From: a virus
Lineage: Duplodnaviria; Heunggongvirae; Uroviricota; Caudoviricetes
Reading direction: 5' to 3' (one strand)
Length of the DNA stretch: 37,428 nucleotides
IMG/VR virus record: IMGVR_UViG_2651869749_000010
Location: 1-37,428 of that record
The stretch's first letter is position 1. Each line of letters starts with the position of its first letter. The notes under the pieces were generated by a model. The model made no database searches. It saw only the letters and a program-made list of their open reading frames with translations, and was not told the origin of the DNA. Made by a program: the position numbers and the translations under genes. This document shows, in pieces, positions 4,069-9,777 of the stretch.

Positions 4069-4272
4069 ATGGCAATTAAGCATTTTCCCGTCGTTCGTTT
4101 CACCTCCAAAGGACGTGAATACGAAGTTGACGAACGCCTGATTACCACAATCGACAAACACCGTTCAGAAAAGGATGCACATCACATCTATCTCACTGAC
4201 GGCACTTACTTTTGCGCCACCAACGTGGTGCAGGTAAATCTTATCAGACAGGTACAGGAGTCACGCAGATGA
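4069..4272 (+). CDS. Hypothetical early protein
   Basis: ORF frame 4018..4272; ATG at 4069 preceded by AAGGAGG RBS. Confidence 0.4.
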   Translation: MAIKHFPVVRFTSKGREYEVDERLITTIDKHRSEKDAHHIYLTDGTYFCATNVVQVNLIRQVQESRR

Positions 4273-4514
4273 CCATTCTGGACTACATCGCTGCCAATCC
4301 GGGTTGTAGCGGTGGAGAAATCGCCGCAGCACTGAATACACCAACCACAACCATTAATGCGGAGCTACGCCGTCTCTGGCGCAGCGGTTCAGTCATAAGA
4401 AAAGAGCGCAAAACAGGCGGTCGCTTTTCTTATCAGGTAAACCCGATGCCGTTTGGGTGTAGCAACCCACTAACCCAGATGTTCAACCAGCTACTGAGGG
4501 AAATCAGAGCATGA
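4269..4514 (+). CDS. Hypothetical small protein, possibly winged-helix DNA-binding
   Basis: ATGA overlap with the upstream gene; 81 aa MTILDYIAANPGCSGGEIAAALNTPTTTINAELRRLWRSGSV... Confidence 0.45.
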   Translation: MTILDYIAANPGCSGGEIAAALNTPTTTINAELRRLWRSGSVIRKERKTGGRFSYQVNPMPFGCSNPLTQMFNQLLREIRA

Positions 4515-5027: not shown

Positions 5028-7850
5028 ATGACGGCAGAGTACATCAGGGACTGGCAACAACCGCGCCACGCAGTGGGGCGTGAAGGAACGGGGATCCCCG
5101 CTCCTGAATCCGCGCTTTCCTCCTGGCTGGATGCCTACCGGGCAGAGAACGAGCGCCGCCAGGAAATGGCTGATGCGGCGTTCTCCGCCACGCCGCTGGG
5201 CAACCTGATTAATAAAAGCCTAGACGCACAGGAAAAACAGGACAAAACAATCACACTGGCAGGAGACGCCAGAAAACAGGCACGCGGCGCGGTAGATGAG
5301 GCCATGGCCTCACTGCGCCTGCTGCCGTCCTATCTGCGCGATCCGCTTATTCGCCACCTCTCCTTCCTGCGCAAAAAACAGGAAGCCGATCGTCAGCAAG
5401 GAAAAAACGCCAGGCAGGCAGAACGCTATGCGCGTGGGACCCTGCGCAAAATATTCGAACGTCTGGAGCGCACCGATCACCGCTGGCTGACATCGGGTTA
5501 TCGCTCCCTTGCCGGACGTGAACGCCTGGACGATTTGATTTACCTGCCGCAACTCAACAAACACCAGATACAGACGCTGGCCACCATGACGGCGGCGATG
5601 TTCAGCAGCACCTTCGAAAAACTCTGCGATGGTTTTGGCGCGACTGATGGCGAGCTGACCATGGATGTAACGCTGAAGGCGTATCAGATGCTGGCCCGCA
5701 TGGCGTTACACTTACACGCCATGCCTCCGCATTATGACGCACTGACAACAGACAAAGACCGGAGGCACGAACCGGACACAGAACTGCTGCCGGGCGCAAT
5801 CCTTCGCCTGACCTGTGCGGAATGGTGGAAACGCAAACTGTGGCTGTTACGTTGCGAGTGGAGAGAAGAACAACTCCGCGCCGCCTGTCTAGTTTCCAGA
5901 AAAACATCGCCCTATCTGAGCCAGGACGCGTTAAGCGAGTTTCGCGCACAGCGCGAGAAAACACGCGATTTCCTGAAAAGTTTCATGCTGGAAAATGAAG
6001 ACGGGTTCACGATTGATCTCGAGACGGTGTATTACGCGGGAGTAAGTAACCCGGTTCACCGTAAGGCAGAAATGATGGCCACCATGAAGGGGCTGGAACT
6101 TCTGGCCGAAGCCCGTGGCGACAAAGCGGTGTTTCTGACTGTCACCTGCCCGTCAAAATACCACGCCACAACGGAGAACGGTCATCCGAATCCCAAATGG
6201 AACGGGGCCACAATGCGCGACTCCAGCGATTACCTGGTTAACACGTTTTTTGCGGCGGTCCGCAAAAAACTGAACCGCGACGACCTGCGCTGGTATGGCA
6301 TCCGCACGGTGGAGCCTCATCATGACGGCACCGTGCACTGGCATATGATGGTCTTTGCACATCCGGAAGAAATCGACACCATTGTGTCCCATACCCGCGA
6401 TATTGCCATTCAGGAAGACCGCCACGAGCTGGGCAATGATATTACTCCGCGCTTTAAGGTGGAGTATGTCGACGGCTCAAAAGGCACGCCAACCAGCTAC
6501 ATCGCCACCTACATCGGAAAGAACCTGGACAGCCGCGCCGTGGATGGCATCGACCCGAAAACGGACAAGCCACGCGTGGACCACGAAACCGGAAAATCAA
6601 TGGCCGAGAGCGTGGAACGCGCCATCGGCTGGGCGCGTCTTCACCGCGTCCGCCAGTTCCAGTTCTTTGGTATCCCCTCCCGTCAGGTATGGCGTGAACT
6701 CCGCCGCCTTGCCAGTCAGATGGCCCGCAACCCGGAAGGTCCACAACGTCTGGAAAATGACGCAATGGATGCGGTACTCGCTGCCGCTGATGCCGGGTGT
6801 TTTGCCACCTACATTGAGAAACAGGGTGGCGTACTTGTTCCACGCAAAGACTACCTGATTCGCACCGCCTACGACCTCGCAGAAGAGCTGAACGATTACG
6901 GCGAGCAAAGCGTACAGATTTACGGGATCTGGTCGCCACAAATCGGGGAATCTTCCCGCGTGTGCACGCACCCGGATAACTGGAAGCTGGTAAGACGTAA
7001 ACCGGAAGCGGAAGACAGCGCCCGCGAAAATGGTTTTGACCTTCAGGGCGGCCCTGCCGCCCCTTGGACTCGTGGCAATAACTGTCCCCGTGTACAGGAA
7101 ACGGACAACAACGGGACAGAACAGCCGGAAGAACGGCCAGCACCGTGGCCGCAGCTCCCTGACGGCGTTGAAGTGAACGAATGGATGCGCTCACTGAAAC
7201 GGCACGAACGCCGGGCGCTGATGCGTTCGCTTCGTGACAAACAGGCAAAAAACAGCAGTGATGAAATGCAGAGCTGGACACAGAGCCGCAAACAGCAGCG
7301 GCCTTTGCCTGATAACCACGAATTACTCGCTAAAGAATGGCGGGAGTCTGCTGAATCTCTCGGCCTGCATATCGGTGAACAGCAGATGCAGCACCTGTTA
7401 CGGGGCGGCAGTCTGTACGTTGACGGCAGCATCATTGCACCGCAGGGATTTGAAATTGTACGCAAACCGGATACCCGACCGGACAGCCGGATCACGCAGC
7501 TCTGGCAGCGCCTGAGCCGTAACCACGGCGTAAGCAGCACGGAGATCCGCCATAACCCGGTCGCCAGCTATCTGGAACAGCTGGGGGCATCAGACCCCGA
7601 AGCCGCCGCACGCCTGGCATCCACACTTCAGCAAGACCAGAACACCATGAAAACACCCGTTACCGTGCTTTCTGACATGCTGCGCGCCATCCGCGACGCA
7701 GAGCACGCACAGAGAATCAGTGAAACCACTGAACGCGCCCGCCGCAAAGCAGACCTGCTGCGAGGTGGCCTGACCAGTGGAAACAAAAAACAGACAGAAA
7801 CGGGATTCACAAATCCCGTAAATGAGCAAAAAACGCGCCGCGATATATGA
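5028..7850 (+). CDS. A: Replication initiation protein (P2 gpA-like rolling-circle endonuclease)
   Basis: 940-aa ORF with HUH-type motif (VHWHMMVF) and paired tyrosines (SYIATYIGKN) characteristic of P2 A-family nickases; position after early genes. Confidence 0.85.
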   Translation: MTAEYIRDWQQPRHAVGREGTGIPAPESALSSWLDAYRAENERRQEMADAAFSATPLGNLINKSLDAQEKQDKTITLAGDARKQARGAVDEAMASLRLLPSYLRDPLIRHLSFLRKKQEADRQQGKNARQAERYARGTLRKIFERLERTDHRWLTSGYRSLAGRERLDDLIYLPQLNKHQIQTLATMTAAMFSSTFEKLCDGFGATDGELTMDVTLKAYQMLARMALHLHAMPPHYDALTTDKDRRHEPDTELLPGAILRLTCAEWWKRKLWLLRCEWREEQLRAACLVSRKTSPYLSQDALSEFRAQREKTRDFLKSFMLENEDGFTIDLETVYYAGVSNPVHRKAEMMATMKGLELLAEARGDKAVFLTVTCPSKYHATTENGHPNPKWNGATMRDSSDYLVNTFFAAVRKKLNRDDLRWYGIRTVEPHHDGTVHWHMMVFAHPEEIDTIVSHTRDIAIQEDRHELGNDITPRFKVEYVDGSKGTPTSYIATYIGKNLDSRAVDGIDPKTDKPRVDHETGKSMAESVERAIGWARLHRVRQFQFFGIPSRQVWRELRRLASQMARNPEGPQRLENDAMDAVLAAADAGCFATYIEKQGGVLVPRKDYLIRTAYDLAEELNDYGEQSVQIYGIWSPQIGESSRVCTHPDNWKLVRRKPEAEDSARENGFDLQGGPAAPWTRGNNCPRVQETDNNGTEQPEERPAPWPQLPDGVEVNEWMRSLKRHERRALMRSLRDKQAKNSSDEMQSWTQSRKQQRPLPDNHELLAKEWRESAESLGLHIGEQQMQHLLRGGSLYVDGSIIAPQGFEIVRKPDTRPDSRITQLWQRLSRNHGVSSTEIRHNPVASYLEQLGASDPEAAARLASTLQQDQNTMKTPVTVLSDMLRAIRDAEHAQRISETTERARRKADLLRGGLTSGNKKQTETGFTNPVNEQKTRRDI
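7800..7819. promoter_or_regulatory. 20-bp palindrome ACGGGATT-N4-AATCCCGT, copy 1 (inside the 3' end of gene A)
   Basis: Read directly: acgggattcacaaatcccgt; second near-identical copy 73 bp downstream. Confidence 0.4.
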
Positions 7851-7872
7851 AGCGCGCATAAAACAGGCAAAA

Positions 7873-7892
7873 ACGGGATTTCAGAATCCCGT
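7873..7892. promoter_or_regulatory. 20-bp palindrome ACGGGATT-N4-AATCCCGT, copy 2 (upstream of the parM-like fragment)
   Basis: Read directly: acgggatttcagaatcccgt, flanked by the same AAACGGGATT...CCCGTAAA context as copy 1. Confidence 0.4.
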
Positions 7893-7926
7893 AAACGATT
7901 AATTAATCAACATAAGGAAAAGCGAC

Positions 7927-8328
7927 ATGAAAATTTGTATCGATGACGGCTCCACCAACATCAAGCTGGCATGGACTGAGAACGGCGAACGCCGCAACGC
8001 CATCAGCCCGAACAGCTTCAAGTCGGAATGGTCTGCGCCGTTCGGTGGCACGCAGCCCGCGAACTACATGCTTGATGGCGTGCGCTATGGTTTTGATCCG
8101 GTCAGCGATCGCTTTGTCCAGACAACTGACACGCAATACCAGTACAGCGATGTGAATGTCATTGCCATTCATCACGCGCTGGTCAAATCAGGCATCACGC
8201 CACAGGAGGTGGATGTGGTTGTCACCCTGCCACTGAGCGAGTATTTCGACACAAACGCACAGCCGGACATAGCCAACATCAACCGCAAAAAAAGCCCAGG
8301 ATTCCCGGGGCGGTTCAGAGGAGAGTGA
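7927..8328 (+). pseudogene. Truncated ParM/StbA-like actin-type segregation ATPase (N-terminal ~120 residues only)
   Basis: MKICIDDGSTNIKLAW...YQYSDVNVIAIHHALVKSGI...VVVTLPLSEYFDTNAQPDIANINRKK closely parallels the recalled N-terminus of plasmid R1 ParM; full-length ParM is ~320 aa, here the frame stops after 133 codons and unrelated sequence follows. Confidence 0.65.
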
Positions 8329-8330
8329 GA

Positions 8331-8822
8331 ATGCAAATTTCACCGGTTACTCTTCGTGTTGCGAAGGCGTTTATATCCAGACATCACCGACACAATAAAC
8401 CCCCGGTGGGGCATAAATTCAGCATTGGTCTGAGAAATGATGCCGGAGAATTGATAGGTGTGGCGACAGCCGGTAGACCTGTTGCACGACATTTGGACGA
8501 TGGATTAACGCTTGAAGTAAATCGCACATGTACCACAGGAGAACGCAACGCTAACAGCGCACTTTATGGTGCTGTCTGGCGGGCAGCAAAGGCTATGGGT
8601 TATCAACGTTGTATTACGTACACCCAGGCAGATGAATCAGGAGCATCTCTCCGCGCAGCTGGTTTTGTTCGTGTGAAAGAGCTTCCTCCAAGAAAAAGCT
8701 GGGCGGAATCAAGCGTCGCCCTGCGGAGTAAACGCGATCCGGTCGGAAACGGTGGTGTTCCTCGTGTGCTCTGGGAAATCAGGAGAATGAGTACCACTGG
8801 CATTCGCATCAAAGGAGAGTGA
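8331..8822 (+). CDS. Hypothetical basic protein (163 aa), first gene of accessory operon; possible degenerate GNAT-like fold
   Basis: ATG 8331 with AGGAGAGTGA RBS/junction; segment ALYGAVWRAAKAMGYQRCITYTQADESGASLRAAGF is loosely reminiscent of acetyltransferase-fold proteins but lacks a clear G-x-G loop. Confidence 0.55.
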   Translation: MQISPVTLRVAKAFISRHHRHNKPPVGHKFSIGLRNDAGELIGVATAGRPVARHLDDGLTLEVNRTCTTGERNANSALYGAVWRAAKAMGYQRCITYTQADESGASLRAAGFVRVKELPPRKSWAESSVALRSKRDPVGNGGVPRVLWEIRRMSTTGIRIKGE

Positions 8823-9091
8823 TATGGCAACTTTGACAAAAAAAGAACAAGCATGGTTGAGCGAATTACAGGACGTTCTTGATCGCTGCCCATCACCGAA
8901 AAAAATTGGTTTTTACACCATTGGCGATAAAAGCATTTACCTGTATGACCTGCGCCGCATGGATGAAATCATGGAGGCTCTTGATAATCGTTCGTCAATG
9001 GATTGGTGTGTTGCTGTCCATGATATGAATGCAGGGTTTGATGAAAAGATTTTGTTCCCCTCATCAGTTGAAAGCACAGCAGGATAAGGAC
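8811..9091 (+). repeat. 281-bp direct repeat, copy 1
   Basis: Identity by eye with 9497..9777; starts at AAAGGAGAGTGAT, ends at TAAGGAC. Confidence 0.85.
8824..9087 (+). CDS. Hypothetical small protein (87 aa), copy 1
   Basis: ATG 1 nt after upstream stop; identical second copy at 9510..9773. Confidence 0.6.
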   Translation: MATLTKKEQAWLSELQDVLDRCPSPKKIGFYTIGDKSIYLYDLRRMDEIMEALDNRSSMDWCVAVHDMNAGFDEKILFPSSVESTAG

Positions 9092-9097
9092 TAACAC

Positions 9098-9508
9098 ATG
9101 ACCACTATTACCAAAGAACGTATTGAATTGTTCATTAAAAATCCGCTTGAAAACGGGCTTACTCGTGACGAACAAATGGAACTGGCACGAATTGCACTGG
9201 CATCGCTGGAAGCAGAGGCAGTTATGTTCTGTATATCAGGACAAAATGTAGATTCAGAAGAACATGTATCAACCAGCAAAGCGGTTGTTGATGCCTGGGT
9301 TGAAGAATGGAATCAGGTTGACGGAAGTCCTGGCGAACCACTGTACAAAACTATGCCACTCTACTATCACGCTGCCTTGCCAGCGCCGGTAGTGCCGGAT
9401 GAAATGTATTGGCAGGATGCGCCAGTTGAAGGCAGCAGCAAAGCGGCTGCATACGCTACAGGCTGGAACGCCTGCCGCGCCGCTATGCTTCATGGGAAAG
9501 GAGAGTGA
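9098..9508 (+). CDS. Hypothetical protein (136 aa) bracketed by the duplicated 87-aa gene
   Basis: 136-aa ORF; stop followed 1 nt later by ATG of duplicate gene; no recognised domain. Confidence 0.55.
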   Translation: MTTITKERIELFIKNPLENGLTRDEQMELARIALASLEAEAVMFCISGQNVDSEEHVSTSKAVVDAWVEEWNQVDGSPGEPLYKTMPLYYHAALPAPVVPDEMYWQDAPVEGSSKAAAYATGWNACRAAMLHGKGE

Positions 9509-9777
9509 TATGGCAACTTTGACAAAAAAAGAACAAGCATGGTTGAGCGAATTACAGGACGTTCTTGATCGCTGCCCATCACCGAAAAAAATTGGTTTTT
9601 ACACCATTGGCGATAAAAGCATTTACCTGTATGACCTGCGCCGCATGGATGAAATCATGGAGGCTCTTGATAATCGTTCGTCAATGGATTGGTGTGTTGC
9701 TGTCCATGATATGAATGCAGGGTTTGATGAAAAGATTTTGTTCCCCTCATCAGTTGAAAGCACAGCAGGATAAGGAC
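9497..9777 (+). repeat. 281-bp direct repeat, copy 2
   Basis: Identity by eye with 8811..9091. Confidence 0.85.
9510..9773 (+). CDS. Hypothetical small protein (87 aa), copy 2 (identical to 8824..9087)
   Basis: ORF-track frame 9399..9773 contains the identical 87-aa sequence from ATG 9510; the N-terminal extension is the overlap with the upstream gene. Confidence 0.6.
   Translation: MATLTKKEQAWLSELQDVLDRCPSPKKIGFYTIGDKSIYLYDLRRMDEIMEALDNRSSMDWCVAVHDMNAGFDEKILFPSSVESTAG

Follow-up and report, generated by a model that had tools for sequence, protein, structure and literature searches.

Twin palindromes beside a truncated prophage parM gene as a probable orphan partition site of unusual architecture

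Positions 1 to 37,428 of IMG/VR record IMGVR_UViG_2651869749_000010 (hereafter the window) belong to a P2-type prophage resembling P88 (Xuanwuvirus, Peduoviridae), in which two near-identical 20-bp palindromes lie 73 bp apart around the end of the replication gene A. Our analysis suggests that these twin dyads are probably the orphaned, and unusual, parC site of a decayed type II ParMRC partition cassette situated downstream of A. We read them as a parC because they occupy the position that this site has in plasmid R1, immediately upstream of parM, and they accompany the parM-parR genes across related prophages, not gene A. If the reading is right, what is new is a variant architecture of parC within a known type of partition system. 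In the window itself the site would be a vestige, since parM stops at about codon 123 and parR is absent.

Anatomy of the twin dyads

The two copies of the pattern ACGGGATT-N4-AATCCCGT occur at 7800-7819 and 7873-7892, each 20 bp long with 8-bp arms and a 4-nt centre. A first-pass annotation, made from the sequence alone, had described two near-identical palindromes 73 bp apart, one in the last codons of A and the other intergenic, and our coordinates agree with it in both respects: dyad 1 lies inside codons ~925-931 of the 940 codons of A, and dyad 2 lies past the stop codon, with the end of its core 36 nt 5' of the parM ATG at 7927. The annotation had also placed the two in a common context of ~28 bp. 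That the context is shared was correct, but its size was underestimated, as both dyads stand within 42-nt direct repeat units (7784-7825 and 7857-7898) that are 81% identical, recur with a 73-bp period and consist of an A-rich leader followed by the dyad. The parts of the element are the following.

7800-7819, no strand: dyad 1, ACGGGATTCACAAATCCCGT, that is ACGGGATT-CACA-AATCCCGT, with the conserved core GGGATT-N4-AATCCC at 7802-7817
7873-7892, no strand: dyad 2, ACGGGATTTCAGAATCCCGT, that is ACGGGATT-TCAG-AATCCCGT, with the core at 7875-7890
7784-7825, plus strand: repeat unit 1, putative parC; A-rich leader CAAAAAACAGACAGAA followed by dyad 1; direct repeat
7826-7856, plus strand: centre of the spacer between the units, with the gene A stop at 7848-7850 and GC-rich short repeats; the least conserved part
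7857-7898, plus strand: repeat unit 2, putative parC; A-rich leader CATAAAACAGGCAAAA followed by dyad 2; direct repeat

The pair is unique in the window. The first-pass annotation had proposed looking for a cognate dyad elsewhere, and no further match was found in the 37.4 kb even with up to two mismatches. By chance 0.03 matches are expected, and two or more appeared in one of 100 shuffles. Nowhere in the window is the 10.5-bp periodicity of AA dinucleotides stronger than in the DNA that carries the pair (7780-7900); it was reached in one of 2000 shuffles and places this interval in the top 0.05% of 121-nt windows. This periodicity implies phased A-tracts and intrinsic curvature, and the 73-bp spacing, at about seven helical turns, would put both dyads on one face of the DNA.

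A third, perfect palindrome of 12 bp, GATTAATTAATC, is found at 7897-7908, between dyad 2 and the ribosome-binding site of parM. It is kept in the Escherichia and Salmonella loci, and its counterpart in Hafnia, GATTAATAAAGC, is not palindromic. It also provides the stop codon of gene A in a natural variant with a single dyad, described below.

Association with parM and parR and the alternatives

In the intact relatives P88 and PhiR44_2, gene A is followed by the same 76-nt gap, then by a ParM of 319 amino acids and a 103-residue 'partition protein', the product of parR. The ParM proteins of the relatives have the Pfam StbA_N domain and the ParM C-terminal domain and match crystal structures of R1 ParM (E=9e-93), and their ParR proteins match Pfam PF10784 (Plasmid_stab_B, the StbB/ParR family of R1; E=1.6e-24). 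A repeated cis site adjoining the operon upstream of parM, as in a type II partition locus, is present as well. Within ParR the C-terminal half diverges to about 50% identity, while the N-terminal strand TRRISFYLKP is invariant in all members found, as would be expected if this strand reads an invariant DNA site. The C-terminal motif ...NI(R/Q)ALFPE aligns with the C-termini of plasmid ParRs (N(I/A)xxLF); in R1 ParR, this region is the ParM-binding helix. Another E. coli prophage (locus L012) has a second, 5'-truncated parR remnant at 5102-5410, downstream of an intact parMR. This remnant and the mosaic C-terminal halves that ParR shows from locus to locus point to frequent recombination in parR.

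The window retains only the first part of this cassette.

7927-8328, plus strand: parM pseudogene; its first ~123 codons are 98% identical to P88 ParM and are followed by unrelated sequence
8325-8822, plus strand: gene of the XF1762 family, weakly Mom-like, which took the place of the whole of parR and of the 3' two-thirds of parM; a mark of the decay

Homology to P88 in parM ends at ~8292-8295, near codon 123, from where the frame continues into unrelated sequence, and in E. coli 190693, where the locus is identical, RefSeq lists parM as a pseudogene, 'incomplete, missing C-terminus'. A tblastn search found no match to parR anywhere in the window. An R1-family type II partition locus has a ParR adaptor; the locus of the window lacks it and those of the relatives have it. 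With parM cut at codon ~123 and parR deleted, the cassette is evidently dead here, which is why we regard its dyads as an orphan, presumably vestigial parC. The arrangement is rare: the region comprising A, the dyads and parM is found in ~1,442 of 5,426 complete E. coli genomes, and the truncated form of parM seen in the window in only 14 of them.

Three comparisons show that the dyads belong to the parMR cassette and not to gene A. A prophage of UMNK88 has an A of the same family, homologous up to about position 7750 of the window, and no parMR; its A ends earlier (...GKGNSEKKK*), unrelated cargo follows, and the 10.8 kb examined around A contain no dyad, even with two mismatches in the core. 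In a viral contig (L062, IMGVR_UViG_2547132279_000014), an open reading frame (ORF) for a zinc-ribbon-like protein of 155 amino acids (1957-2424) stands between a shortened A and parM, and homology to the window starts at about 7785, ~17 nt before dyad 1, which is the left end of unit 1. A second junction with a different upstream gene (L144) also shows homology from about 7785, placing the left boundary of the parMR cassette where repeat unit 1 starts. When we scanned 2.9 million viral contigs for two GGGATT-N4-AATCCC cores 40-70 nt apart, 92 stretches matched, and in all 80 of the loci fetched from these the start of parM lay exactly 36 nt downstream. Taken together, the UMNK88 prophage, the two junctions and the matches of the pattern place the dyads in the cassette.

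The same junctions bear on the coding sequence of A, whose last ~21 codons are encoded by unit 1 of the cassette and the spacer. The unrelated 155-residue ORF reads into the cassette and gains the same 20-residue tail, ...KQTKTGFTNPVNEQKTRSDI*, as the A of the window, and the A of UMNK88 has neither tail nor dyads; the coding of these residues is therefore incidental, as any ORF abutting the cassette reads in until it meets a stop. A coding constraint on the tail of A was ruled out on the same grounds.

Conservation was assessed over 95 loci with a P88-type parM, Hafnia included. The dyads stand at -127 and -54 from the parM ATG with the 73-bp spacing, dyad 1 being present in nearly all loci. 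The core GGGATT-N4-AATCCC is nearly invariant, with GG at core positions 4-5 in all 380 half-sites; what varies is the outermost two bases, the central 4 nt and, most of all, the middle of the spacer that separates the units. In the Hafnia relatives, whose ParR is 74% identical, both cores are kept and a stretch of unit 2, AAAACAGGCAAAAACGGGATTT, is identical to that of E. coli, while the outer two base pairs of the dyads are broken. The A-rich leader ACAGGCA is conserved as a sequence and not merely as T-richness. Polymorphisms within the dyads are also seen: T7>C is common in dyad 1, and A1>G and C18>T are frequent in dyad 2.

This pattern of conservation, together with the association with parM, bears on four other explanations of the dyads. 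The units might be a functionless scar, a 73-bp tandem duplication at a recombination-prone junction of modules in which the second copy is the displaced 3' end of the upstream ORF. Read in its own frame, the second unit does give KQAKTGFQNPVND*; different genes abut the junction, a known hot spot of cargo; and the units are direct repeats of which a single-unit variant exists. In this variant (L225, IMGVR_UViG_2657245439_000011, ~2540-2610) the two units recombined, 73 bp were deleted and one hybrid dyad is left, with A ending ...TGFKNPVTD* in the frame of unit 2; the 42-nt units are thus able to recombine. Between E. coli and Hafnia, however, both palindromic cores persist at exactly 73 bp from each other while the intervening sequence diverges, a pattern that a neutral scar would not maintain; a duplication leaves the palindromy unexplained, and the peptide tail, being found on unrelated ORFs, is not a conserved feature of a protein. 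We regard such a scar as highly improbable.

Two further explanations place the function in RNA. The sites may be two tandem rho-independent terminators on the minus strand, shielding A and its internal origin from antisense transcription out of the late P-Q operon or the cargo, in which case each site would form a hairpin with an 8-bp stem, and the T-rich complement of the A-rich leader would come after it. A terminator scan scores both sites on that strand (ACGGGATTCTGAAATCCCGT TTTTGCCTGT and ACGGGATTTGTGAATCCCGT TTCTGTCTGT), the hairpins fold at about -10 kcal/mol, the conserved leader would be the T-tail, and the polymorphisms of dyad 1 are compatible with G-U pairing. However, all genes from A to the portal gene are on the plus strand in P88-type genomes, leaving no minus-strand gene end here, and the elements track parMR instead of A, as the dyad-less A of UMNK88 illustrates. 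With the frequent variants of dyad 2, the minus-strand stem would contain C-A mismatches; the hairpins have four G-C pairs and are short, the tail of unit 1 is interrupted, and the leader is conserved in its sequence. Terminators are, in our assessment, very unlikely.

Alternatively, hairpins might act on the plus strand of a polycistronic early mRNA, as 3' stabilizers or processing sites between A and parM, or as modulators of parM translation. Their location at the A/parM junction, folding energies of -11.0 and -10.7 kcal/mol (z about -4) and the G-U compatibility of the dyad 2 polymorphisms would fit this role. Against it, about a third of loci have T7>C in dyad 1, which makes a C-A mismatch on this strand, in Hafnia the two outermost pairs are lost, and conservation reaches into the unpaired A-rich leader. 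Compensatory double substitutions were found in no pair on either strand across the 95 loci, so that nothing in this comparison argues for an RNA structure, and we give plus-strand hairpins a very low probability.

Finally, the dyads might be operators for another regulator of the phage or host, for example the MarR-like protein (about 4269-4514) or Cox/C, controlling the genes downstream of A. Inverted repeats of 16-20 bp with half-sites spaced by 10 bp suit helix-turn-helix dimers such as MarR, and the early operon does encode a MarR-family protein. Yet the UMNK88 prophage has a MarR-like protein that is 90% identical and no dyad near its A, at up to two core mismatches in the 10.8 kb; in the window the dyad appears nowhere else, the early and late promoters included, and its association with parM in 80 of 80 loci comes with no promoter to regulate. 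A scan of 7000-9000 found no sigma-70-like promoter, and the candidate -10 hexamers seen between the dyads are not kept in relatives. The first-pass annotation had named two possible roles, operators of the downstream accessory operon and a centromere-like remnant linked to the parM fragment. The former finds no support: the scan gave no promoter, the inter-dyad sequence is the least conserved part, and the XF1762-family gene and the others downstream are a later replacement unrelated to the dyads. Operators of any such regulator thus seem to us a very improbable explanation. The latter suggestion is the one that the comparisons favour, given the parC position, the joint travel with parM-parR and the decay of the cassette here. 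We accordingly read the element primarily as a centromere-type adaptor site and not as a classical operator. The cassette itself has no detectable promoter and thus probably owes its transcription to read-through of the early operon. The MarR-family ORF is a winged-helix protein gene at 4212-4514 with a likely start at ~4269.

Comparison with known partition sites

The parC of plasmid R1 lies immediately upstream of parM and has two ParR-bound blocks of iterons separated by an unbound 39-bp spacer, in strongly curved DNA (Dam & Gerdes 1994; PMC2241845). The putative parC of P88-type prophages resembles it in lying upstream of a homologous parM-parR pair, in its A-rich, phased and curved DNA, and in being bipartite, with two units and a spacer of 53 bp in place of 39 bp. 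It differs in most other respects. In the R1 site a strong promoter is flanked by two clusters, each of about five 11-bp iterons in direct orientation (PMC2241845), whereas the prophage site has two inverted repeats of 16-20 bp, that is four half-sites, and no detectable promoter, and its unit 1 overlaps the end of an upstream ORF. The prophage ParR, with 103 residues, is shorter than plasmid ParRs (112-147), and the element is carried by an integrating prophage instead of a plasmid. In place of the iteron array of R1-type sites we thus found two inverted repeats, with no promoter-like site in 7000-9000, and the element is best described as a variant of the parC architecture. Type II partition is textbook knowledge, and to our knowledge its centromeres come from a handful of plasmids, all with iteron arrays.

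The closest ParMs of plasmids and phage-plasmids are 47-52% identical and come from IncF plasmids, the IncL/M plasmid pOXA-48, Arsenophonus, R1-like plasmids and phage D6, all with the classical layout and with the parC placed upstream of parM. When species-representative genomes and viral contigs were scanned with ParM, all the relatives recovered were at least 98% identical, and tblastn against phages returned only P88-like phages and D6. We found no plasmid that uses the cassette alone; the one plasmid match with 100% identity in ParM that was examined is a whole prophage inside an IncHI2 plasmid. Our literature searches found no description of a P88-type parMRC or of its parC.

Other systems offer partial parallels. 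The chromosomal ParMRC of Clostridium botulinum (Cb-cParCMR) has a parC of three palindromic repeats to which cParR binds, as judged by electrophoretic mobility shift; this site is located immediately upstream of cParMR according to the text and after cParR according to the legend of Figure 5 (PMC12270681). It is, like the present element, a genome-borne, non-plasmid ParMR with a palindromic parC, and a precedent for palindromic parC repeats that a ParR binds, but its ParM and ParR belong to an unrelated lineage from Firmicutes. The Corynebacterium prophage CGP3 has an actin-like filament and a DNA adaptor (AlpC and AlpA) that binds repeats (alpS) upstream of its own operon, and the system is needed for efficient replication or positioning of the phage DNA after induction (PMC4446434, PMC5539076). 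Functionally, this is a precedent for an integrating prophage with a par-like system; alpS has about 24 short degenerate repeats (TTAAnnG) and its actin-like protein is of another family, whereas two dyads are found here, and we do not claim homology.

The spacing of the half-sites in GGGATT-N4-AATCCC is compatible with that in the operators of the ribbon-helix-helix proteins Arc, MetJ and CopG, where inverted half-sites stand ~10-11 bp apart, centre to centre, and each binds a dimer whose two-stranded beta-sheet enters the major groove. Those sites are transcriptional operators placed over promoters, whereas no promoter is evident here.

A number of observations weigh against a parC. The link between ParR and the dyads is one of guilt by association, and the two show no covariation, since the ParR strand and the dyads are both invariant across the family; every ParR that database searches and genome-context look-ups yielded has this N-terminal strand unchanged and is accompanied by the same core. 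The ribbon-helix-helix fold of ParR is predicted from Pfam membership only: the AlphaFold2 monomer has helices at 20-29 and 32-52 and an unmodelled N-terminal strand at low confidence (predicted local distance difference test score of 60), and neither Foldseek, with this low-confidence model, nor phmmer gave a significant match in PDB. All the close plasmid relatives have two clusters with 8-10 direct iterons of ~11 bp flanking a recognizable promoter, and four half-sites may be too few for a ParR ring of the R1 style. The missing promoter also leaves the autoregulatory half of the parC paradigm unsupported. In addition, dyad 1 is apparently not under strict constraint, since P88 itself and about a third of the intact loci have an arm mismatch (GGGACT) there, and the variant that lost one dyad (L225) is a natural deletion with an apparently intact parM and cassette.

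Neighbouring features and a possible role

The surroundings of the element are those of a P2-type prophage. Megablast of 7400-8400 matched 14 P88-like phages at 96-99.6% identity, and upstream of A the window has an integrase, a helix-turn-helix repressor candidate and a rightward early operon.

5028-7850, plus strand: replication gene A (Phage_GPA), 940 codons with the stop at 7848-7850; 30% identical to P2 A; context, outside the element

Inside A, a homologue of the P2 origin is found at ~7056-7085 (GCCGCCCCTTGGACTCGTGGCAATAACTGT, against GCCGCGCCTCGGAGTCCTGTCAATAACTGT in the nick-site region of P2, with about 25 of 30 positions matching), and this is likely the rolling-circle origin of the phage. 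The dyads as a P2-type replication origin, with a nick site for the A protein, were ruled out: the homologue of the nick site lies ~750 bp upstream and has no resemblance to them. Downstream of the cassette, a perfect 281-nt direct repeat (8811-9091 and 9497-9777, with a period of 686 bp) marks a tandem duplication that doubles an ORF of 87 amino acids (8824-9087 and 9510-9773) and encloses one of 136. The extra 686 bp are apparently missing from the otherwise identical prophage of E. coli 190693.

How might the site work in prophages with an intact cassette? By analogy with plasmid R1, the 103-residue ParR, presumably of the ribbon-helix-helix type and the protein that binds the dyads, would occupy the four ACGGGATT half-sites as dimers. 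The ParR bound at the two dyads would lie on the same face of intrinsically curved DNA, 73 bp apart, and its C-terminal helices would capture the ends of ParM filaments. The resulting role would be one of segregation or positioning. More speculatively, ParR bound 36 nt upstream of parM might also damp its expression. In the window, the orphan parC could function only if ParR were supplied in trans by another prophage.

A broader model follows from this, which we put forward tentatively and think somewhat more likely to be wrong than right. P88-type prophages would use a minimal centromere of two palindromes on curved DNA, with a mode of ParR binding unlike the iteron ring of R1, pB171 and pSK41. 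Expressed by read-through from the early operon, the cassette would have no part in plasmid inheritance and would act on excised or replicating phage genomes, in the lytic cycle or during establishment, and an orphan parC such as that of the window could titrate the ParR of co-resident prophages and lead to incompatibility between prophages.

For the window itself, the consequences are modest: the site would be the leftover of a decayed cassette, of low functional consequence, and it accounts for the odd C-terminal tail of A. If the reading is true for the intact relatives, a parC of two dyads working with ParM and ParR of the R1 family would reveal how small a number of ParR sites is enough to link DNA to an actin-like filament, and would offer a compact model of parC, of about 115 bp. 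About one in four complete E. coli genomes has a prophage with this cassette, which raises the question of what role a plasmid-segregation motor may have for chromosomal prophages.

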